From the NCBI GenBank assembly GCA_046351595.1, contig JAXLYE010000004.1:513219-577218 (forward strand): a stretch of 64,000 bases of DNA, in the 5' to 3' direction. Positions 1 to 12,771 of the stretch are shown one piece after another. Source of the DNA: Polyangia bacterium (GTDB taxonomy: Bacteria; Myxococcota_A; Polyangia; Palsa-1104; JAEUJZ01). The position numbers and the translations under genes were made by a program. The notes beneath the pieces are model-generated. The model worked only from the letters and a program-made list of their open reading frames with translations, was not told the DNA's origin and made no database searches. How positions within the stretch are numbered: position 1 is the stretch's first letter; each line of letters starts with the position of its first letter.

Positions 1-201
1 CCAGCCCGCGCGGCGTTCCCGAGTCGCTGCTGCCGCCGCGCCGGCTGTCGCGCGCGGCGGGCCGCAAGGCGACCCCGCGGGCGCTGTCATGAGGCCGGCC
101 CTAGGCGCCGTGAAAAGTTCTCGCTCGCTCGTCGCTGCGCGCGCCCCGCTTGCGGCGGTCGCGGGCGCTTGCGAAGATGTCTCTGCCTGCGCTCCTGGGA
201 C

Positions 202-600
202 CGCTGCACGGCTAGCGTCCCGTCCGCGATGGAACGTCGCGGCTGCTCATGACCTGCATTGGAGAACGCGGAGTCGCGCACTGCCGCTTGCGGCTCTTCG
301 CAGTGTGCGCACCGCTGCACAGCAAGTAGTCGCGGTCCCAGGAGCTGCAGACTTTTTCGTGTCACCTTCTCCCTTCGGGGTCCGGGTCGGCCCAGGGCTA
401 GCGTATGGTCCGCGATGGAACGTCGCGGCTGACTCAGACCGGCACAATACAAGGCGGTGGGCCGAGTCGCCGCCAGCGGCTCTTCGCAGCTCGCGAGCGA
501 GCGCTTCGGCCCATCCCCGACCGGGTGGTCGCGAGCTGACGCCTTCGGCTCGAAGCGACTCGGCCACCGCTGCATCGGAAGTAGCGCCGGCCCGGACCCC
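202..600 (+). repeat. Diverged tandem duplication of about 190 bp (copy 1 about 202-345, copy 2 about 385-600). Each copy carries the hairpin CCGCGA-TGGAACG-TCGCGG (227-245 and 413-431) plus the shared blocks GGCTCTTCGCAG and CACCGCTGCA..AAGTAG..CG. It lies immediately upstream of, and overlaps the 5' end of, the retron RT ORF. Candidate retron msr/msd ncRNA region.
   Basis: Direct sequence comparison of the two segments: GCTAGCGTCCCGTCCGCGATGGAACGTCGCGGCTG against GCTAGCGTATGGTCCGCGATGGAACGTCGCGGCTG. The inverted-repeat stem is present in both copies. The position relative to the RT gene matches retron architecture. Confidence 0.35.
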
Positions 601-2160
601 GAGCTTCTCTGTCCGTCCGCTTTCTTCGTCGTCGTGTCGGAGGCCGTCGTGAGCCTGGCTGCGCTCCTTCTGAAGCTGCGCCCCCTGGTTTCGGGAGAGC
701 GCGTCAACTGGCCGCAGGTGTTCGCGCTGCTGCGCGGCAAGTCGGATCTGGCCGAGTACGAGGTCGCGCGCCTGTACGTCGCCCGCGTCGCCTCGCCGGG
801 CCTGCACCGCATGGCACGCAGCGTCGACCCGCGCGAGCGGGTGCAGGCGGCCAAGGGGATCCGCCTGTGCTGCACCCGGCAGGAGGCGGCGACGCTCCTG
901 CGCCCGCTGGTCAAGGACGTCGACAGCCACGTGCGCAGCGCCGCCCACGCCTCGGTGCGCGCGCTCGCGCTAGAGGACGTGGCGCTGCCCGATACGCGCT
1001 TCAAGCCGCCGCGCCGGCCCGACACGCTGCGCCCCGGCGGCTGGAACCCGACCGGCTGGTCGTTCGGTCTGTTCGGCCGCCGCTACTGGTACTGGAGCCA
1101 GAGCCCGAGCGCGAAGAAGAAGGGCGCGAAGAAGCCGGACCTCAAGAAGCTCGGTGTGCCGCCGCTCGGCTCGGTCGACGAGCTCGTGAAGTGGCTGGGG
1201 CTGGGCACGGCGAAGGACCTGCGGCGCTACATGCGGCCCGGCGCCGGCCCCGGCTCGCCCTACGTGCAGTTCACCATCCCGAAGTCGAGCGGCGAGCCGC
1301 GCACCATCACCGCGCCGCGCGCCTCGCTCAAGAAGCTGCAGCGCCGCATCCTCGACGAGATCCTGGCCAAGCTCGAGCCGCACGAGGCGGCGCACGGCTT
1401 CGTCCGCAGGCGCTCGGTGCTGAGCAACGCGCGGCCGCACCAGGGCGCAAAGCTCGTCGTGAAGATGGACCTGCGCGACTTCTTCCCGAGCATCTCGTAC
1501 AAGCGCGTTACCGGCCTGTTCCAGAGCTACGGCCTCGGCGAAGAGGTCGCGGCGGCGCTGGCCGGCCTGTGCACGCACCGCGCCGTGCTGCCCGACGGGT
1601 TCGTGCTGTGGCCCGGGGTGCTGCCGCAGGGCGCGCCGACCTCGCCGGCGCTGGCCAACCTCTTGTGCCGCCGGCTCGACGCGCGCCTCTCGGGTCTGGC
1701 CCGCCGCGCCGGGGCCGCGTATACGCGCTACGCCGACGACATGACGTTTTCGTGGCGGGAGCCGCCCAGCGCGGTCGCCGCCTCGGCCGAGCCGGCCGGC
1801 AAGAAGCCCGGGCTCGGGCGCTTCCTGTGGTGGGTCGAGCAGGTCTGCCTGCAGGAGGGCTTCGTCGAGAACGCCACCAAGCGCCGGGTCCTGCGCGCCT
1901 CGGGCCAGCAGCGCGTCACCGGCATCGTCGTAAACTCCGGGCTCTCGGTGCCGCGGCAGGCGCGGCGGCGGTTCCGCGCCCTCTTGCACAACTGCAAGGT
2001 CGCGGGCGTGGCGTCGCAGGCGCGCGGCCGCTCCGACTTCCGCGCGTACCTGCTCGGCTACGCCTCGTACATCAAGATGGTCCACCCCGCGCTCGGCGCG
2101 CGCCTCTTGCGCGAGGTCCGCGAGGTCCTGCGCAGCGACCGCGGCCCGACGGAGTCGTAG
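457..2160 (+). CDS. Retron-type reverse transcriptase with an N-terminal extension of about 230 aa (Mx162/Mx65-like). The RT domain starts near 1150-1230; the true start codon may be downstream of 457.
   Basis: Translation carries YVQFTIPKSSGEPRTITAP (the start of the RT finger), the NARPH (NAxxH) motif, QGAPTSPALANL (QGxxxSP), YADDMTF (YADD catalytic motif) and VTGIVVN (the retron VTG motif). A long N-terminal extension matches myxobacterial retron RTs. The RT gene is convergent with the downstream gene. Confidence 0.8.
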   Translation: MGRVAASGSSQLASERFGPSPTGWSRADAFGSKRLGHRCIGSSAGPDPELLCPSAFFVVVSEAVVSLAALLLKLRPLVSGERVNWPQVFALLRGKSDLAEYEVARLYVARVASPGLHRMARSVDPRERVQAAKGIRLCCTRQEAATLLRPLVKDVDSHVRSAAHASVRALALEDVALPDTRFKPPRRPDTLRPGGWNPTGWSFGLFGRRYWYWSQSPSAKKKGAKKPDLKKLGVPPLGSVDELVKWLGLGTAKDLRRYMRPGAGPGSPYVQFTIPKSSGEPRTITAPRASLKKLQRRILDEILAKLEPHEAAHGFVRRRSVLSNARPHQGAKLVVKMDLRDFFPSISYKRVTGLFQSYGLGEEVAAALAGLCTHRAVLPDGFVLWPGVLPQGAPTSPALANLLCRRLDARLSGLARRAGAAYTRYADDMTFSWREPPSAVAASAEPAGKKPGLGRFLWWVEQVCLQEGFVENATKRRVLRASGQQRVTGIVVNSGLSVPRQARRRFRALLHNCKVAGVASQARGRSDFRAYLLGYASYIKMVHPALGARLLREVREVLRSDRGPTES

Positions 2161-2164
2161 CTCG

Positions 2165-3124
2165 CTACTCCGTGCTGCGCGGGCTCGCGGCCAGCGCGGC
2201 GCGCAGCGCGGCGAGCTCCTGCTCGTTCTCCGCGAGCAGCCGATCGCGCTCGGCGCGCTCCTGCAGCAAGAGCTCGATGTGCCGCTGGCTGCGGCGCAGC
2301 TTGTCCTCCAGGCGCTTGCGCTGGAAGAACTCCGGGATGCGGGCCGCGGCCTCGCGCGCGGCGCCCTCTTCGTGTGCGCCGGCGCGGTACATGCCAAGGT
2401 GCTCGGACAGGCGCCACGGCGGCGACATGATGAAGCGGCAGGCCGCGTGGCCGGCGGCGCGGCAGGTGATCTCGACGGCGGCCAGCGGCAGGCCGAAGCT
2501 CTCTTCGCACCAGCCCGAGGAGTACCCCGCGTTCATCGCGCACACCGGCTGGCTCGCCTGCCGACCGCGCCGGATCCACGAGTCGGCCTCGAACGAGTAG
2601 GGGTGATCGTAGATCAGGTAGTAGTTCTCGTTGGGCACCACGCGGCTGCTCGGATCGATGCGCACCTTTGCCCAGCCCGAGAACGCGAACTGCACCGGCC
2701 CGATCGACAGGCGCTCGACGGGCTCGGTGATGCCCATGTGCGCGTGGAAGTGGCGCGCGTCCGACTTGCCGATGGCGTGCCCGAGATCGAACAGCAGGTT
2801 GGCCGCGAGCTTGCGCGCCTCGTGCTCACTGCCCTCGCTGTAGATGCCGGCTAACAGGTCCGTGAACTCGAGCGACATGGCGCCGGCGCGCATCAGGATG
2901 TAGCGCTCGCCGGAGACCTCGAGCGTGCCGTGCGCGGGGTCGTGGCGCAGGCTGCCGAAGTAGCGCCGCGCGTACTCCTCGGCCTTGCGGAACAGCGGCG
3001 CGAACTGCGGCGGGACGTCCACGGTCTCGACGGAGTCGACGGAGTCGGGGGCAGGGGAGGGGCCGCCCGACTCGTGCGGCTCGTGCGGCTCGCGGGGACG
3101 GCTCGGATCGTGGCTCGAGGTCAT
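2165..3124 (-). CDS. V4R / XylR-N-like ligand-sensing domain protein with a coiled-coil C-terminus. Its start overlaps the stop of the upstream cyclase gene by 4 bp (ATGA).
   Basis: Clean ORF with good codon usage. Resemblance to activator-of-aromatic-catabolism / 4-vinyl-reductase domains (GERYILMRAGAMS...LLFDLGHAIG, and a Cys-containing C-terminal half GWCEESFG...CRAAGHAAC). Translationally coupled to the 3121..7206 gene. Confidence 0.45.
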   Translation of the reverse strand: MTSSHDPSRPREPHEPHESGGPSPAPDSVDSVETVDVPPQFAPLFRKAEEYARRYFGSLRHDPAHGTLEVSGERYILMRAGAMSLEFTDLLAGIYSEGSEHEARKLAANLLFDLGHAIGKSDARHFHAHMGITEPVERLSIGPVQFAFSGWAKVRIDPSSRVVPNENYYLIYDHPYSFEADSWIRRGRQASQPVCAMNAGYSSGWCEESFGLPLAAVEITCRAAGHAACRFIMSPPWRLSEHLGMYRAGAHEEGAAREAAARIPEFFQRKRLEDKLRRSQRHIELLLQERAERDRLLAENEQELAALRAALAASPRSTE

Positions 3125-6100
3125 CGCAGAAGCTCCGTGTGCAGCGCCTGCGCGGCGCGTCCGTCATGGCTGTCGGCGAGTCCGCTGCAGCGTACGAGCG
3201 TCTGCTCGAGCAGACCCGCGGCCTCGGCGCGGTTGCCCTCGGCGCGCCACAGCCGACAGAGGCTGGTGGCGGCGCGCAGCTCGAACAGGCGCGCCTGCTG
3301 GCAGCGGGCGATGTCGAGCGCGCGCAGGAACAGATCCTCGGGCGCGCCGTCCAGCGGATACTCCAGGTAGGCGCCGCGGCTCTTTTGGCGCAGGACCTCG
3401 CCCTGCACGCGCAGTACCTCGGCCGCGGCGAAGCGCTCGCCGTTGGCGTTCATGCGCTGCACCGCGTCGGTGATCGTTGCCAGCGCGGCGTCGGGCTGGC
3501 CGCTCTCCAGCTCGAGCTGCGCGATGATCGCGAGCAGCATCGTCAGCGACAGCTCGGAGCCGACCTTGCGGCGCGCGCTCATCACCGCCTGCATGCGCGC
3601 GATGCCGGCCGGCGCCTGCCCCTCTTTCGCCTGCACCCAGCCGCCCAGGAACTCGGCCTGCAGCGCGACGTGCGGGTAGCCCTGCTGCGTCGCGAGGTGT
3701 TGTAGCTGCTGCGCCAGCTCGCGCACCGTGGGCACGTCCTGCAGGCCCTGCGCGAAGACCCCGGCCGCGAACATCGCGAAGGTCAGGCTGTAGGGGTGGT
3801 TGATCTCGCGCGCGCAGGCGACGGCGCGTTCGTAGACCGGGCGCGCCTGGGCGACGTGGCCGAGGTACCACAGGCAGTGCCCGAGGTAGCCGCCGCACAT
3901 CACCTCGAGATCGAAGCCGTACAGGTACGCCAGGCGCTGGTGGCGCTCGCGAAGGTAGCGGCGCAGCAGCGACTCGGCGTGCGCGCGCGCGGTGGTGAGC
4001 TCGCCGAGGAAGAAGCAGGTGATGTGCAGCGCCGCGGTGGCGGCCAGCGCCGCGTCGGAGTCCGGATCGCCCTGGCCCTCCTGCTCGAGCCGCAGCGCGT
4101 AGTCCCGCGCCAGCCAGATGCGGCCGCGCGTGATGTTGAACGTCCACAGCCCGAACAGCGTCGGCAAGAGCTCCGGCGGGCGGCCGGCGCCGCCGTCCCG
4201 CTCGACCCGCTCGCACAGCGCCAGCGAGCGCAGGAGCGCCTGCTCGGTCTCGGGCGCGACGAAGCCGCGCACCGCGGAGAGCGCGATGGCCTGCGGCGCA
4301 CGCAGCGCCAGCTCACGCCCGGCCTGCGTCGCGCTCTCGGGCAGCCGCGCGAGCAGGGCGAGCCCGCGCTCGAACAGCGCGATGGCCTCGCGCGAGGCGC
4401 CGCTGTGCAGCGCCTGCAGGCCGGCCCGCTGCAGCGCGTCCACCGCCTTGTCCAGCTCCTCGCGGCTGGCGTGCGGGTGATCCGCGGCCTGGCTGTAGTG
4501 GTGCGCGAGCAGCGGGTAGATCTCGCCGGCGCGGTGGCTGGCGACGCCGCTGGCGCTGCGCTCGTACCAGGCCGCGACCTCGAGGTGCAGCTGGCGGCGC
4601 TGCGCGAAGGCCAGCGTGTTGTACGCGACCTCCTGGATGATGATGTGCTTGAAGCTGTACGTGAGCTCGTCGGCGGCGAGCCGCGAGGTCAGGTCGTGCC
4701 GCTCGAGATCGTCGAGGTAGCCGCGCAGGTGCGGGCGATCCGAGGCGATGGGGTGGACGCTGCTCAAGAGCGGGTGGAAGAAGGTGCGGCCGACGACGCT
4801 GGCGACCTTGAGCAAGAGGTGCTGCGGCGGGCGCAGGCGGTCGATGCGGCTCAGCACCACGCCGTGCATGGTGGTCGGCAGGCGCAGCGCGCGCAGCTCC
4901 GCGAGCGTGCGCTTGAGGTGGCAGACCCCGGCCTCGACCCGGAACGCGCCGGCGTCGTGCAGCGCCGCGGCCAGCTCCTCGGTGAAGAAGGGGTGGCCCG
5001 CGGTCTGCTCGAACAGGAAGTCGACCAGCGGCGGCGGCGGCTCGGCCCCGCCCAGGCGGTCGCGCAAGAGCGCCACGACGTCGGCGCGCGGCAGCGGCTG
5101 CAGCACGAGGAGCAGCGCCTGCGGATCCGCGCGCAGGCGCTGGTACTCGGCGAGCGTCGCGGCGTCCGCGATGGCCGCCGGCGGCCGGCTGGTGATCACG
5201 AGGAGCAGCCCCGGCACCTCGCGGCGCACGCGGTGCAGGAGCGCCCACGACGCCGAGTCGAGCCAGTGCGCGTTCTCGAGCAGGAGCAGCAGCGGGCCGG
5301 GCGCGCGGGCGAGCATACGCGCGAGCAGCGCCTGCCGCTGCTCGGAGTGGGCGCGGCTGGCCACGGCGCGCGTCCACTCGCCGTCCGGATCGTCGAGGTC
5401 GAGGCGCAGCACCGGGCCGAGCAGCGCGAGCTGGTCCGCGTACTCGGGCGCGAGCTGCACGAGCCGCTCGCGCAGGAGCTGGCGCACGTCCTGGTTCAGG
5501 TCTGGGCGCAGGTCCTGGGCATCGGCCGGAGCGCCGCTCGTCGTCCGCGGGGCCGGCAGCCGGAACAGGGCGCGGAAGACGCTGGCCCAGGCGAAGTAGG
5601 CGGTCGTGCGCTCGATGGCGTCGCCGGTGCCGCACAGCGTGGTGATGCCGAGCCGCTCGGCGTGCGCCAGCACCTCGGCGATCAGGCGCGACTTGCCGAT
5701 GCCGGCCTCGCCCTCGATGAGGACGCAGCCGCCCGCCGCCTGGGCGCTGAGCGCGCGCAGGCGCTCGACGATGCGCTCGAGCTCTCCGTGGCGGCCGACC
5801 ATGCGATCGACGAAGTGCTCGGGCGAGGGCGGCGCGACCGGGCCCGCGGCGGCGAGCGGGACGTGCGCGGTGATCGGCTCGGCCTTGCCCTTGACCTTGA
5901 GCGCGCGCGAGCCGCCGAAGCGGACGCCCGCGCGCGCGGCCTCGTACGACGGCGCGTCGCACAGGATGGGCAGGGCGGTGCTGGCGGCGGCGCCCATCAG
6001 CCGCGCCGCCAGGTTGACGACGTCGCCGAGCACCGTGTACTCGCGGCGCTGCTCGTTGCCGATGGTGCCGCAGAAGGCGTGGCCGGTGGCGACGCCGATG

Positions 6101-7206
6101 GCGCAGCGGCCGCTCCCGCGCTGCAGCACGGGCTGACAGGCGACCGCCGCGCGCACGCCGCGCAGCGCGTCGTCCGGGTGCGACAGCGGCGGCAGCCCGA
6201 AGACCGCCAGCAGCATCACGCCCTTCTCGTCGACGTGCAGCTTGTTGATGCTGCCCTCGTGCTGGCCGATGATCGCCTGCAGCTCGGACACGAGCTCGGG
6301 CGCGCGATCGCCAGCGCCCGGGGCCGCGGCGGCCTGATCGTCGAGATCCGGCAGCAGCGCGAACAGCACGGTCACGCGCCGCAGCTCGCCGAGCCAGCCG
6401 CCCTGTCCCGCGTCCAGGCGATCGAGCACCGCGTCCGGCAGGCAGGCGCGCAGCGGCGCCACCATCTCCGGCCGCAGCGCGACCCGGGCGCTCGGCGCGA
6501 CCGGCGGCGCCACGAGCTGCACAAGGCGCACGCCGCCGTCGACGGGCTCGGCGTGTCCGCGCGCCGCGATCTGCTCCCAGGCCGGCGCCGCCAGCGCCAC
6601 CTGACCCGGCTGCGCGAGCGGGCACAGGAGGCTGGCCTGCTGCAGGCCGGCGCCGGTGCACACGAACTCCCAGCGCCCGTCCCCGCCGCCGAGCTGGCGC
6701 AGCACCACGTCACCCAGGCCGATGCCGATGCGCATGGACAGGGTCACGCCGTGCACCGGCCGCGCGCCCGCGAGCGCCGCCTGCAGCGACAGCGCGCAGC
6801 CCGCGGCCTGCGCGACCGCGTCCGCGCTGCCGTCGTCGCCGTCGCCTAAATCACCCGCCGCCGGCACCCGCCACAGCGCGATCAGCCCGTCGCCGGCGAA
6901 CTTTACGACCTCGCCGCCGTTGGCATCGATGCGATCGATAATCTGGCCGAAGTAGGCGTTGAGGGTCGCGGCCAGGAGCTCGGCGCCGACCTCGCCCTGG
7001 CGGCTCAGGCGCTCGGTCAGCGCGGTGAAGCCCGAGATGTCGGCCAGGAGCACCGCCGCGCGTTGCCCCAGCCGGATCGGCGCGGCGGGCGGCTCGGGCT
7101 GCGCAAGGTGCCGGATGTACTGGAGCGGGACGTAGCTGGCCAGAGTCTGCAGCTCCGCGCTCGCACCGGCCGGGTCCTGCTCTTCCTGCCGCGGGGCTGC
7201 TGACAT
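3121..7206 (-). CDS. Large signalling protein with two class III adenylate/guanylate cyclase domains, an AAA/STAND-like ATPase and C-terminal TPR-like repeats.
   Basis: First cyclase domain: LLADISGFTALTE...VVKFAGDGLIALW. Second cyclase domain: HVDEKGVMLLAVFGLP...GVATGHAFCGTIGNEQRREYTVLGDVVNLAARL. Walker A: GEAGIGKSRL. Long helical-repeat C-terminus. 1361-aa ORF with ATG at 7206. Confidence 0.85.
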   Translation of the reverse strand: MSAAPRQEEQDPAGASAELQTLASYVPLQYIRHLAQPEPPAAPIRLGQRAAVLLADISGFTALTERLSRQGEVGAELLAATLNAYFGQIIDRIDANGGEVVKFAGDGLIALWRVPAAGDLGDGDDGSADAVAQAAGCALSLQAALAGARPVHGVTLSMRIGIGLGDVVLRQLGGGDGRWEFVCTGAGLQQASLLCPLAQPGQVALAAPAWEQIAARGHAEPVDGGVRLVQLVAPPVAPSARVALRPEMVAPLRACLPDAVLDRLDAGQGGWLGELRRVTVLFALLPDLDDQAAAAPGAGDRAPELVSELQAIIGQHEGSINKLHVDEKGVMLLAVFGLPPLSHPDDALRGVRAAVACQPVLQRGSGRCAIGVATGHAFCGTIGNEQRREYTVLGDVVNLAARLMGAAASTALPILCDAPSYEAARAGVRFGGSRALKVKGKAEPITAHVPLAAAGPVAPPSPEHFVDRMVGRHGELERIVERLRALSAQAAGGCVLIEGEAGIGKSRLIAEVLAHAERLGITTLCGTGDAIERTTAYFAWASVFRALFRLPAPRTTSGAPADAQDLRPDLNQDVRQLLRERLVQLAPEYADQLALLGPVLRLDLDDPDGEWTRAVASRAHSEQRQALLARMLARAPGPLLLLLENAHWLDSASWALLHRVRREVPGLLLVITSRPPAAIADAATLAEYQRLRADPQALLLVLQPLPRADVVALLRDRLGGAEPPPPLVDFLFEQTAGHPFFTEELAAALHDAGAFRVEAGVCHLKRTLAELRALRLPTTMHGVVLSRIDRLRPPQHLLLKVASVVGRTFFHPLLSSVHPIASDRPHLRGYLDDLERHDLTSRLAADELTYSFKHIIIQEVAYNTLAFAQRRQLHLEVAAWYERSASGVASHRAGEIYPLLAHHYSQAADHPHASREELDKAVDALQRAGLQALHSGASREAIALFERGLALLARLPESATQAGRELALRAPQAIALSAVRGFVAPETEQALLRSLALCERVERDGGAGRPPELLPTLFGLWTFNITRGRIWLARDYALRLEQEGQGDPDSDAALAATAALHITCFFLGELTTARAHAESLLRRYLRERHQRLAYLYGFDLEVMCGGYLGHCLWYLGHVAQARPVYERAVACAREINHPYSLTFAMFAAGVFAQGLQDVPTVRELAQQLQHLATQQGYPHVALQAEFLGGWVQAKEGQAPAGIARMQAVMSARRKVGSELSLTMLLAIIAQLELESGQPDAALATITDAVQRMNANGERFAAAEVLRVQGEVLRQKSRGAYLEYPLDGAPEDLFLRALDIARCQQARLFELRAATSLCRLWRAEGNRAEAAGLLEQTLVRCSGLADSHDGRAAQALHTELLR

Positions 7207-9960: not shown

Positions 9961-11241
9961 ATGTACGGCTCGCTCCTCCGTCTGCGCCTCCGGGTCGCCT
10001 CGCTGGTCACGTCGCTGGCCGCCTCTCTGGTCGCCTCGCTGGTCACGCCGCTTCTGGCCGCATCGAGCCTGGCTCTCGGCCCCGCCTGCGGGGACGGCGC
10101 GGCGCCGCTGGAGAGCGGAGCGAGCGCCCTCCTTTCCATCGGTCCCGGGAACATGAACGCTGCGGACTGGAACGGTGACTCGCTGCCGGATCTGTCGGTC
10201 GCCAACTTCCTGTCCGCCAACTTCGCGGTCCGTCTGAACGCGGGCACGGACCAGGGCCCGGGCGGCGCTACGTTCCAGGAGTCGCGGCTCTACCCGGCCG
10301 GGCTCTTTCCCTCGTTCATCGCCGCCGCGGACTTCAACCACGATAACCGCCTCGATGCCGCGGTCGTCAACGCGGTCTCGAACGATGTCTCGGTGCTGCT
10401 CGGCAAGGGCGATGGGTCGTTCCTGGCGACGCGTCAGTACCCGCTCTCCGATCCGCGGAAGCCGCTGCTCGGACTCGGCCTGGGTCCTTTTTCGATGGTC
10501 GCGCGCGACTTCAACCACGATCAGCACCCGGACATCGTGACCAACAACTCGCTGACCAACAACGTCTCGGTCCTCCTCGGAACCGGAACGGGGACCTTCC
10601 AGGCTGCGAAGACGTATCCGCTCCTGGGGCCCAAGAGCCTGGGGCTGGTCCCCTTCGCCCTCGCCACCGCCGACTTCGACGGCGACGGCAACTACGATCT
10701 CGCGGCCGGCGCGCTCAGCAGCGTCGTCATCCTGAAGGGACGCGCCGACGGCTCGTTCACCGCGGTGCGCGAGTACATGCACGGGATCGACACCGCCTGC
10801 GTCGATGTCGCCGACTTCGATGGCGACGGCAAGATGGACATCGCCGCGACGGCGACGGTGACCAACAGCTACACCATCCTGCTCGGCCGCGGCGACGGCA
10901 GCTTCACGATCAAGGAAACCCGGCCGGCCGGCGGCACCGCGCCGCAGTGCTTCAGCATCGGTGATCTCGACGGCGATCAGAAGCTCGACCTGGCCATCGT
11001 CAACACCGCGTCGGCCTCCGTCGGCGGCGCCGTCGCGGTGCTGCTCGGCAAGGGCGACGGAACCTTCGCGCAGCCCGTCGCCTATCCGGTCGGCATCCTG
11101 CCCTGGGCCTCTGCAATGGTCGACTTCAACCACGACGGCAACCTGGACGTCGCCGCGTGCAACGCCATAAATTCCTCGGTGTCGGTGCTGCTCGGAAACG
11201 GCGACGGAACGCTGCAGCCGCAGATCATGGTCCCGATGTAG
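9961..11241 (+). CDS. Secreted FG-GAP repeat (integrin-alpha-like beta-propeller) protein with about 7 repeats.
   Basis: Strong RBS AAAGGAGA before ATG 9961. Signal-peptide-like N-terminus (LVTSLAASLVASLVTPLLAAS). Repeated DFNHDxxxD...NxVSVLLGxGDGxF units typical of FG-GAP/VCBS repeats. Confidence 0.75.
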   Translation: MYGSLLRLRLRVASLVTSLAASLVASLVTPLLAASSLALGPACGDGAAPLESGASALLSIGPGNMNAADWNGDSLPDLSVANFLSANFAVRLNAGTDQGPGGATFQESRLYPAGLFPSFIAAADFNHDNRLDAAVVNAVSNDVSVLLGKGDGSFLATRQYPLSDPRKPLLGLGLGPFSMVARDFNHDQHPDIVTNNSLTNNVSVLLGTGTGTFQAAKTYPLLGPKSLGLVPFALATADFDGDGNYDLAAGALSSVVILKGRADGSFTAVREYMHGIDTACVDVADFDGDGKMDIAATATVTNSYTILLGRGDGSFTIKETRPAGGTAPQCFSIGDLDGDQKLDLAIVNTASASVGGAVAVLLGKGDGTFAQPVAYPVGILPWASAMVDFNHDGNLDVAACNAINSSVSVLLGNGDGTLQPQIMVPM

Positions 11242-11325
11242 CGGCGTGTCGGGGGCGCCGCGGTGATGCCGGCAGACAGTGCCCTGCCGCGTCGCCGCGC
11301 TGATAAGATCCGGACGGGGGTGCGC

Positions 11326-12771
11326 ATGGATCCGCGGCTGCGGCTTCGTCGCATGATCGGCGAGCTCGATCTCGATCCGCTGCGCGCGCTCGCCGATCGG
11401 ATCACCGGCGCGCAGTTCGCCGCGCTGTTTCACCCGCGCCCGCGGGAACGCGGCATCTCGCTGCACCTGGGTCCTTATACGACTCCGTATCTGGAGGGAG
11501 ATCAGGGCTCGGACGAGGCGCGGGCGGCGCGTGCCGAGCTGCTCACGCTCAAGCGCGAGCTCGAGCAGGAGCTCACGGACTTGGAGCGCCGCGCCGGACC
11601 CCTGTTCCCTTCCCGCCGCGCCGAGCTGTGCACCCTGACCGCGCAGTTCCTGCTGGCCGTCGCGCCGCGGGATCTGAGCACCACGGCGCTGCGTACCTAC
11701 GGGCTCGGGCTGATCTGGATGTTCGCGGTGGACGACGGGGTCGATCGAGTGACGGCCCGGATCAACGATCTGAACCTGCCGGGGTGCCGGATGTGGTATC
11801 CGCGCGTCGTGCAGCGGCTGGTCGAGCGCCACATCGCGAGCCTGAGAGCGGGGCTGCGCGGGCAGCCGTGCCCTGCGCTCCCGACGGACTGGCGGGAGGC
11901 CGTGCTCGTCGGGACGGAGCTGCCGCTCGGCCGGCTGGAGCGGGGGCTGCACAGCGCGCTCGGCTGGTACATGGGCAGGGGGATGCGGAAGCTCTACGCG
12001 CTGGGCGGGCTGCTGCACCGCTGCGGCCTGCTCCTGCGGGAGCTCTGCGCGCGTCTTTACAAGACCGCCCCGGAGGCGCTGCCGGGCGAGGCGTGCCAGG
12101 CGCTCGTCCGCGTCGCCGCGCCCTTCGTCAACATCCTGTCCGAGAGCCTCCTCAAGAAGGTGGACGAGGTCGCCGCGGCACCGACGAGCGCCGAGGCGTA
12201 TTACGTCCGGCACGCGCAGACGAGCGGCACGCGCATGACCTTCGAGCTCGGCATCCTCATCACCGGGCTCGATCGCCGCCTGCAGCTGCAGGCGCGCGCG
12301 GCGCTGCAGGTCGAGCGCGCGATGGAGCATGCGTATCGCTGCGTCCTTTTGGCAAACGAGAGCTGCTTCGCGCGCGACATCGGCACGGCCGAGGAGTCGC
12401 TGGTGGCGGTCCTGATCGCCGAGGCGCTGCGCGAGGCGGGGCCGGCGCCGTTCCTGGGGACGCAGCGCGCGCACGGCCAGGTGCTGCGCCGGTACGGACA
12501 TACGCCCGCGGCGTTCGCGGCGGTAAAGCGCATCTATGCCGATCTGCGGAGCCACCTCTTCGCGCTGCTCGACGCCTGCGAGGCGCTGCTCGGCACCGCG
12601 CCGCCCGACGCTGTGGCGGTCGCGCGCTGCATCGCCGAGACCCTGCTGTTGTGGGCCGTGGGCTATCACCTGCTGAACCCGACCTGCAGCCGCTACGGCG
12701 ACTCGTTTGCGGCCGTCGCGGCGGTGCTGCACGACGACTATGCGCGGTTCCGTCGCGTGGTGCGGCGGTGA
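11326..12771 (+). CDS. Terpene-synthase-like protein (class I DDxxD metal-binding motif); function uncertain.
   Basis: LIWMFAVDDGVD resembles the aspartate-rich DDxxD motif of class I terpene cyclases. Mostly alpha-helical composition. No clean NSE/DTE triad was found, so the call is weak. Confidence 0.3.
   Translation: MDPRLRLRRMIGELDLDPLRALADRITGAQFAALFHPRPRERGISLHLGPYTTPYLEGDQGSDEARAARAELLTLKRELEQELTDLERRAGPLFPSRRAELCTLTAQFLLAVAPRDLSTTALRTYGLGLIWMFAVDDGVDRVTARINDLNLPGCRMWYPRVVQRLVERHIASLRAGLRGQPCPALPTDWREAVLVGTELPLGRLERGLHSALGWYMGRGMRKLYALGGLLHRCGLLLRELCARLYKTAPEALPGEACQALVRVAAPFVNILSESLLKKVDEVAAAPTSAEAYYVRHAQTSGTRMTFELGILITGLDRRLQLQARAALQVERAMEHAYRCVLLANESCFARDIGTAEESLVAVLIAEALREAGPAPFLGTQRAHGQVLRRYGHTPAAFAAVKRIYADLRSHLFALLDACEALLGTAPPDAVAVARCIAETLLLWAVGYHLLNPTCSRYGDSFAAVAAVLHDDYARFRRVVRR

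Follow-up and report, generated by a model that had tools for sequence, protein, structure and literature searches.

Retrons are normally described as one reverse transcriptase (RT) acting with one template RNA. The locus described here lies near the start of a 64,000-nt stretch of DNA from a Polyangia bacterium (contig JAXLYE010000004.1, positions 513,219 to 577,218 of the forward strand; hereafter the window), and it raises the question of whether a retron RT can naturally serve two templates. An earlier note, made from the letters of the window, had reported a diverged 190-bp tandem duplication with conserved hairpins at 202-600, upstream of and overlapping the annotated RT start, and had suggested that it might be a duplicated msr/msd module or a set of two alternative template units. 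Our analysis makes it likely that the locus is a natural two-template retron, in which two complete msr-msd modules, unit 1 (U1) and unit 2 (U2), stand in tandem on the RT strand in a 560-nt region between a HEAT-repeat/aldo-keto-reductase (HEAT/AKR) gene and the RT gene. Both units are probably reverse transcribed, with one enzyme making two DNA products. All coordinates are collected in Table 1.

A repeat search of the window detected a tandem repeat between 207-303 and 393-489 (97 nt, 73% identical, offset 186) and a second pair of segments at 310-338 and 565-593 (76% identical, offset 255). Every sequence block listed in the earlier note is present, and the block GTCCGCGATGGAACGTCGCGGCTG has the same letters in both copies (24 nt, 222-245 and 408-431). 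The longest exact word common to U1 and U2 is likewise 24 nt, against at most 12 nt in shuffled sequences, and a local alignment of 187-349 with 374-603 scored 80, against 19.6 ± 3.0 in 500 dinucleotide shuffles (z about 20). Since score and shared word both lie far above the shuffled values, the duplication upstream of the RT is real, as had been claimed. The uniform 190-bp period did not hold: the two offsets differ and the units are of unequal length, about 155-163 nt for U1 and 228-230 nt for U2, the surplus of about 75 nt in U2 being placed between GGCTCTTCGCAG and CACCGCTGCA. Because the units differ by this indel, Tandem Repeats Finder called no repeat, and no other copy of the 75-nt insert was found in the window or in any collected locus. 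The unit boundaries are formed by two long-range inverted repeats that bracket the copies and that had previously gone unmentioned. A UUCG-type hairpin, CCCTTCGGGG (371-380), had been noted between the copies; it does not form a separate element, since its G-run is the start of the U2 closing stem, and the motif is missing from relatives, with CCTCGAATGGAG in its place in the related locus L002.

The ends of each unit pair in a private closing stem, and because the sequence of this stem differs between U1 and U2, the units fold independently; the RNA of the whole region (183-660) folds as two separate domains. Folding of the individual copies, proposed earlier as a check, gave structures better than shuffled sequences for both (z = -3.6 for U1 and -4.6 for U2). 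Long direct repeats between the units are now confined to the msr core and two short msd blocks. The units have in common the RT-recognition hairpin CCGCGAUG-GAA-CGUCGCGG and the same priming geometry, a short GCUA/UAGY stem that ends at the G of UAGC and faces a second G. The priming G of retrons usually has a TAGC or CAGC context and is found where the a2 arm ends on its inner side (PMC6868368), and "two opposing G residues" are noted in the legend to Fig. 2 of Mestre et al. 2020 (PMC7736814); at the sequence level, G215/G326 and G401/G581 agree with both descriptions. The further features of a retron non-coding RNA (ncRNA) were also found, namely a structured RNA on the same strand adjoining the RT gene, an a1/a2 closing inverted repeat, and an msr followed by an msd stem-loop. 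A search of positions 1-3000 against Rfam 15 (E <= 10) returned just a chance miRNA match inside the RT gene. The idea of a duplicated msr/msd module has thus gained in substance, as each copy carries all sequence-level hallmarks of a retron ncRNA, the RT is of the retron type, and both copies are kept in relatives above the conservation of their flanks.

The translated RT carries NAxxH (SNARPH), YADD and VTG (RVTGIVVN) motifs, and the best 25 of its 60 PADLOC matches are all to retron RT profiles, so that the enzyme, as judged from motifs and profiles, is a retron RT. RT_XIII scored best, with 368 bits against 329 for RT_other and 312 for RT_outgroup. Assignment to clade 10, or type XIII, uses the best profile as a proxy, with a moderate margin over RT_other, in place of a tree of reference clade-10 RTs.

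The anatomy of the units is shared widely. All 25 units defined in related loci (numbered L001 onwards) show one architecture, which consists of a closing stem of 13-26 bp, a bulge of 3-7 nt, a short stem, a G in (U/C)AGC, an msr hairpin and an msd hairpin; the closing-stem sequence changes between lineages yet stays complementary. For 13 orthologous units of the U1 type, taken from different lineages, RNAalifold gives a consensus with 43 pairs, 26 of them with compensatory changes; in the closing stem, such changes affect 12 of 14 pairs. In the MAFFT alignment of these 13 units, 92.4% of cells are paired, compared with 76.7% in column shuffles (none of 500 reached the observed value), and sliding the partners by one to three columns lowers the paired cells to 34-50%. 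The short stem GCYA/URGY covaries, with UA in nine sequences and CG in four (GCUA/UAGY versus GCCA/UGGC), and the 8-bp msr hairpin is paired in 100% of cells, with AU to GC and GC to AU changes in relatives. U1 itself matches the covariance model with 159 bits. The consensus fold of four U2 orthologs includes compensatory changes at two closing-stem pairs (G378-C599 to A-U and C391-G586 to U-A) and in the msd stem (A495-U529 to C-G). When the predicted U2 multicopy single-stranded DNA (msDNA) is folded as DNA, it forms a stable hairpin with z = -3.5; the predicted short msDNA of U1 was indistinguishable from shuffles in the same calculation.

Related loci were collected from genome and metagenome contig collections and by exact-protein look-ups in Logan assemblies. 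Myxococcota contain RT homologs in abundance. The highest RT identity reached 62% in genome contigs and 64% in metagenome contigs, which yielded few close relatives, and the close clade came only from the Logan assemblies. According to the earlier note, absence of the duplication from close relatives would count against it. Both units proved to be present in all relatives whose RT is at least 80% identical and whose upstream sequence is long enough, namely in L001 (95%), L002 and L003 (80%) and L005 and L006 (81%). The sequences of L007 and L004 start too far downstream to include U1 in full, and L168 (79% RT identity) is uninformative, as it offers just 110 nt 5' of its RT, with no unit in that stretch. 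Between the window and L002, third codon positions of the RT gene are 71% identical, and non-coding flanks 58-65% identical plus indels. Against this baseline, U1 reaches 94% (99% in L001) and is the most conserved non-coding stretch of the locus, while U2 reaches 79%, with 85% in its msd hairpin. These values, together with the compensatory changes in U2, argue for purifying selection on both units, strong on U1 and weaker on U2. The inter-unit spacer seems unconstrained; in L005-L007 it carries a (GGGATATC)n microsatellite of variable copy number (L006:609-660, L007 at about 60-120, and the equivalent position in L005).

Unit counts across more distant lineages were taken from coordinates of matches to a covariance model of the unit. 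Intact pairs were also found in L014, L169, L093 and L012, with 88-158 bits for both copies. Pairs thus occur in five of 20 lineages, and the other 15 have one copy. L014_A is closest to L169_A (77%) and L014_B to L169_B (82%); the pair therefore predates the split of L014 and L169 and was kept through it. On a rough RT tree, in which the window is placed by L001 (95% identical), the pair-bearing lineages are not monophyletic; either duplication has been recurrent, or an old pair has been lost several times. The pair of L012 (Polyangium sp. 6x1; 6163-6549) follows the HEAT/AKR gene but stands about 3.4 kb from the RT (10001-11428), the gap containing an inserted segment that encodes a YhgA-like transposase (PF04754; 8816-9934). 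This arrangement resembles the old description of the Ne160 repeats "without an RT within a kilobase". The Myxococcus locus L172 has the same short single unit, not one of Mx162 size. Weak covariance-model matches (E 2.5e-4 to 0.03) at L021:6784-6940 (-), L042:6821-6960 (+) and L066:9637-9788 (+) lie near more distant RT homologs from Myxococcota, Armatimonadia and Anaerolineae, the one in L021 on the opposite strand, 3 kb 5' of the RT.

In U1 and nearly all single units, about 110 nt separate the priming G from the 3' motif, but in U2 about 180 nt do so, and the U1 a2 arm (GCUCCUGGGACCGC) resembles the a2 arm of Myxococcaceae single units (GCUCCUGGGGUCGC). Both observations identify U1 as the ancestral module, orthologous to the single unit upstream of related RTs, and U2 as a derived duplicate whose msd hairpin was lengthened at its tip by about 75 nt. 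Smaller expansions of 15-20 nt, each a small hairpin, are seen in L012_B:6373-6542 and L017:9817-9986 at the position of the U2 insert; the msd tip may be especially prone to changes in length. Many of the 13 aligned units carry an msd-tip motif, GCCGCTTGCGGCTYTTC (283-299 and 469-485 in the window; alignment columns 93-110), with variants in several others. It is conserved in sequence while the surrounding stem covaries freely, persists in U2 as a side branch, and may be a protein-binding or termination signal.

A promoter-like footprint of the form TTGCNG-17 nt-GAA(C/G)AT, with differing spacer sequences, lies 7-9 nt 5' of the first unit in five lineages (the window, L002, L014, L169 and L093), and would place the transcription start near 185, at the foot of the U1 closing stem. 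No such motif was found before any second unit of a pair. As the footprint precedes first units only, we infer one promoter and co-transcription of the two units. At the 3' end of U1, a generic scan made a weak terminator-like call at 332-348 plus the T-run, and L169 has a GC-rich hairpin followed by TTTT between its units A and B (L169:1664-1695), which resembles an intrinsic terminator. The closing stems of many single units (L008, L009, L010) and of L014_B are likewise followed by T-runs, a hint that termination or read-through may be regulated after each unit.

Given the observed anatomy, conservation, covariation and RT identity, the following scheme is proposed. One promoter 5' of U1 would give a transcript that contains both units and can continue into the RT gene. 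The single RT would bind each msr through the shared hairpin, prime from the 2'-OH of G215 and of G401, and copy the msd backwards from 326 to about 262 and from 581 to about 450. The expected products are two branched msDNAs of about 60-65 nt and about 125-135 nt, lengths scaled from the msr and msDNA dimensions of Mx162 and Mx65. Further downstream, the msDNAs would probably act in complex with the RT and the HEAT/AKR partner. The scheme predicts two RT-dependent msDNAs, each of which should be removable by one point mutation.

How the repeats relate to the RT coding sequence depends on where the gene starts. The mechanically derived open reading frame begins at GTG 457 and runs in frame with the RT, and in this DNA of 68-70% GC the frame is also open upstream in relatives; one could thus suppose that 457-648 encodes a genuine N-terminal extension and that the repeats lie in translated sequence. 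We give this hardly any credence. GTG 649 and the preceding GGAGG are invariant in six relatives. Gene calls in relatives begin at the equivalent GTG and give orthologs of 501-510 aa. Alignments of homologous proteins (470-510 aa) start at residue 1, the one encoded at 649, and M1, L3 and L6 are conserved. The sequence between 457 and 648 varies among relatives by indels that are not multiples of three. Because U2 ends 46 nt before the conserved GTG in the window but 24 nt before it in L002, a difference of 22 nt, this sequence is not a conserved coding extension, and U2 would be read in different frames in the two loci. The substitutions within 457-602 are of the compensatory RNA type. These comparisons place the RT start at GTG 649, further downstream than 457, as had been surmised, with GTG 457 itself inside U2. 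The deposited RT gene call of L174 (1501-3084, 527 aa) begins inside an ncRNA unit (1428-1580) and is over-extended in the same way. RT gene calls in this family can thus begin inside ncRNA.

Several points weigh against two working templates. A generic sigma-70 scan called no promoter, for which reason the promoter proposal comes from cross-lineage footprinting. At the T-run after U1, as at the hairpin and T-run of L169, a share of the transcripts might end without reaching the second unit. Priming at G215 and G401 and the lengths of both msDNAs are predictions. The covariation of U2 is thin, with four pairs from just four distinct sequences. U2 is also less conserved than U1, and its msr-proximal part, at 72% identity to L002, is near the level of RT third codon positions (71%), which suggests weak constraint on part of the unit. 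Moreover, 15 of 20 related lineages manage with one unit, so the second is not required for the system. It is conceivable, if rather unlikely, that U1 is the sole working template. U2 would then no longer be reverse transcribed and would persist as a structured leader at the 5' end of the RT mRNA, perhaps a decoy that binds the RT and so adjusts RT translation or the ratio of ncRNA to RT. Such a role would suit the lower conservation of U2, the evolution of its msr-proximal part at about the rate of RT third codon positions, its end 46 nt from the RT start codon, the orthology of U1 with single units and the prevalence of single-unit lineages. Yet the priming determinants of U2 (closing stem, GCUA/UAGY stem, UAGC, opposing G and identical msr hairpin) are intact in four of four sublineages, its compensatory changes extend to the msd stem, for which a decoy that only bound the RT would have no use, and its position is not special, as the sole unit of single-unit loci sits at the same distance from the RT start.

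The converse, in which U2 is the working template and U1 a relic of an ancestral module under replacement, appears very improbable. U2 does adjoin the RT as in canonical retrons, and in its long msd stem it is reminiscent of the classical long msDNAs from myxobacteria, that of Mx162 in particular; however, a relic would decay, whereas U1 is conserved far above flanks and RT third positions, and the promoter footprint sits at U1. We hold it to be equally far-fetched that the second copy is a retrotransposed msDNA, that is, non-functional cDNA reinserted beside the retron, as has been proposed for msDNA-like repeats of Nannocystis exedens. Retron-Nex1 (Ne160) offers a precedent for duplicated msr/msd repeats, according to PMC6868368 citing Lampson & Rice 1997, and the L012 pair stands at a distance from its RT. 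Reinserted cDNA, however, would hold the msd and at most the overlapping msr end, whereas U2 comprises the complete msr, the stretch 5' of the priming G and a new closing stem with its two arms. The copies share one orientation and follow each other head to tail, which is what a local DNA duplication would give, the separation in L012 is explained by the inserted transposase segment, and no dispersed msd-only copies were found within the 64-kb window. We thus retain the two-template reading. A broader extension of it, which we put forward tentatively and consider less probable than not, is that in this myxobacterial retron subfamily, marked by a HEAT-extended RT and a HEAT/AKR partner, duplication of the template RNA is a recurrent, selectively maintained means of diversifying the msDNAs of one RT. 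Here, a short ancestral and a long derived msDNA would have distinct roles, for example different binding partners or phage or cellular triggers, and the differing closing stems would have evolved for independent folding, which would make the locus a natural counterpart of multitrons and an analogue of UG27 arrays.

Table 1. Features of the retron locus. Positions refer to the window.
Feature	Position	Strand	Basis or remark
Upstream partner gene, last 29 codons and stop TGA (90-92)	3-92	+	frame-3 SPRGVPESLLPPRR...RKATPRALS* matches C-terminus of the upstream gene of L001
Promoter-like footprint: -35 TTGCGG (150-155), 17-nt spacer, -10 GAAGAT (173-178)	150-178	+	phylogenetic footprinting only
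U1, complete short msr-msd module	187-349	+	inverted repeat, fold, covariance model, consensus structure
U1 closing stem, a2/a1	191-204/332-345, extendable to 187/349	+	perfect 14-bp inverted repeat
U1 5' bulge	205-209	+	5 nt
U1 short stem GGCUA/UAGUC	210-214/327-331	+	adjoins candidate priming G
U1 candidate priming G215 in CUAGC, facing G326	215, 326	+	sequence level
U1 msr hairpin	224-231/235-242	+	8 bp
U1 msd hairpin	268-315	+	consensus fold
Inter-unit spacer, with T-run (352-356) directly after U1 closing stem	350-373	+	58% identity plus indels versus L002
U2, complete long msr-msd module	374-603	+	inverted repeat, fold, consensus of 4 orthologs
U2 closing stem, a2/a1	375-391/586-602	+	17-bp inverted repeat, 94%
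U2 5' bulge	392-396	+	5 nt
U2 short stem GCUA/UAGC	397-400/582-585	+	adjoins candidate priming G
U2 candidate priming G401 in CUAGC, facing G581	401, 581	+	sequence level
U2 msr hairpin, identical to that of U1	410-417/421-428	+	8 bp
U2 msd hairpin, long and branched	453-571	+	consensus fold
Shine-Dalgarno GGAGG, 5 nt 5' of RT start	639-643	+	invariant in 6 of 6 aligned relatives
Retron reverse transcriptase, 503 aa, GTG start, HEAT-like N-terminal extension	649-2160	+	Pfam RVT_1 9.8e-18, PADLOC RT_XIII 1.6e-110

The partner gene is cut by the window edge. In relatives, its full-length form is a HEAT-repeat/aldo-keto-reductase fusion of 959-1057 aa. The homologs of L002 (917-4090), L008 (6757-9636), L012 (3125-6151) and L172 (2860-5799) match Pfam HEAT_2 and Aldo_ket_red, the last according to precomputed Pfam matches, and those of L008 and L012 also match PADLOC HEAT-ARM_XIII weakly (6e-8 and 2e-7). 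The order HEAT/AKR gene, ncRNA, RT is found in most of the 20 full-length RT lineages where the upstream gene is readable; L011 looks different. The two genes downstream of the RT in the window are convergent with it and unrelated. The first (2165-3124, -) encodes a protein with V4R and XylR_N domains and is syntenic in L001. Its start codon overlaps by 4 nt the stop codon of the second (3121-7206, -), which encodes a 1361-aa adenylate/guanylate-cyclase and AAA_16 protein with weak PADLOC PycC matches.

Comparison with known systems begins with type XIII, which corresponds to RT clade 10 of Mestre et al. 2020 and includes the myxobacterial retrons Mx162, Mx65, Sa163 and Ne144. The locus resembles this type in its best PADLOC profile, in an N-terminal extension typical of myxobacterial retron RTs, in a same-strand upstream ncRNA with an a1/a2 stem and a priming G in (T/C)AGC, in the adjoining HEAT/ARM-repeat partner and in a distribution that looks vertical within Myxococcota. 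On the strength of RT profile and HEAT partner, it is therefore placed with the type XIII retrons. It differs in having two ncRNA modules instead of one and in its partner: the DEDE/winged-helix/SWIM zinc-finger gene of type XIII (cluster 114) was not found beside the relatives' RTs examined, where no PADLOC or Pfam match to a winged-helix/SWIM gene was obtained among the neighbours in L002, L008, L012, L170, L171 and L172. The locus is thus at best a divergent type XIII subtype with a HEAT/AKR partner, and such type XIII-like retrons with an AKR-domain partner may form an undescribed subtype. The finding bears on a retron type that is seemingly inherited vertically in myxobacteria and for which, to our knowledge, no biological role is known.

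A natural two-template arrangement has rarely been described. Duplicated ncRNAs are not mentioned in Mestre et al. 2020, the retron census or the SPIRE survey, and a literature search for natural tandem msr-msd modules, or for two msDNAs from one retron, gave just a note on Ne160, engineered multitrons and UG27 arrays. For Ne160 of Nannocystis exedens, PMC6868368, citing Lampson & Rice 1997, describes a number of duplicated msr/msd repeats that lack an RT in the surrounding kilobase, read as the result of repeated duplication and insertion or retrotransposition. As compared by this description, both are myxobacterial loci with more than one msr-msd copy side by side; here, in contrast, the pair is directly flanked by the partner gene and the RT, its conservation extends over several lineages, and both copies have the appearance of functional units. 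The window thus lacks the Ne160 trait of repeats that have no RT within about 1 kb; L012 alone has its pair at such a distance.

A pair conserved in about a quarter of lineages would imply that one retron RT can, in nature, work with two RNAs whose only common part is the msr recognition core. Engineered multitrons are msr-msd arrays in which every unit is reverse transcribed by one retron RT (PMC10370050). Like them, the locus has tandem msr-msd units, each with its own priming site, beside one RT, although reverse transcription was demonstrated for multitrons and is predicted here. Multitrons are synthetic, Eco1-based and made for genome editing, whereas the natural pair uses different closing-stem sequences. 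Its design, in which the closing stems are distinct, the msr hairpin is shared and the msd tip is freely expandable, offers a ready-made template for stable multi-donor retron editors. UG27 RTs (bioRxiv 10.64898/2026.09.22.753630) use natural ncRNA arrays as templates for short hairpin cDNAs. These arrays, like the pair described here, consist of structurally conserved, sequence-diverged units beside one RT, with units gained and lost between relatives. UG27 is a phage-borne class 2 Unknown Group RT with two accessory proteins, many-unit arrays and conserved motifs unlike those of a retron, and an a1/a2 stem and branch-G priming are not mentioned in the passages considered; the RT of the window is of the retron type and its neighbouring genes differ, which sets it apart from UG27. 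The two-template model is plausible because one RT serves all units of the engineered arrays and because UG27 RTs use natural arrays of ncRNAs.

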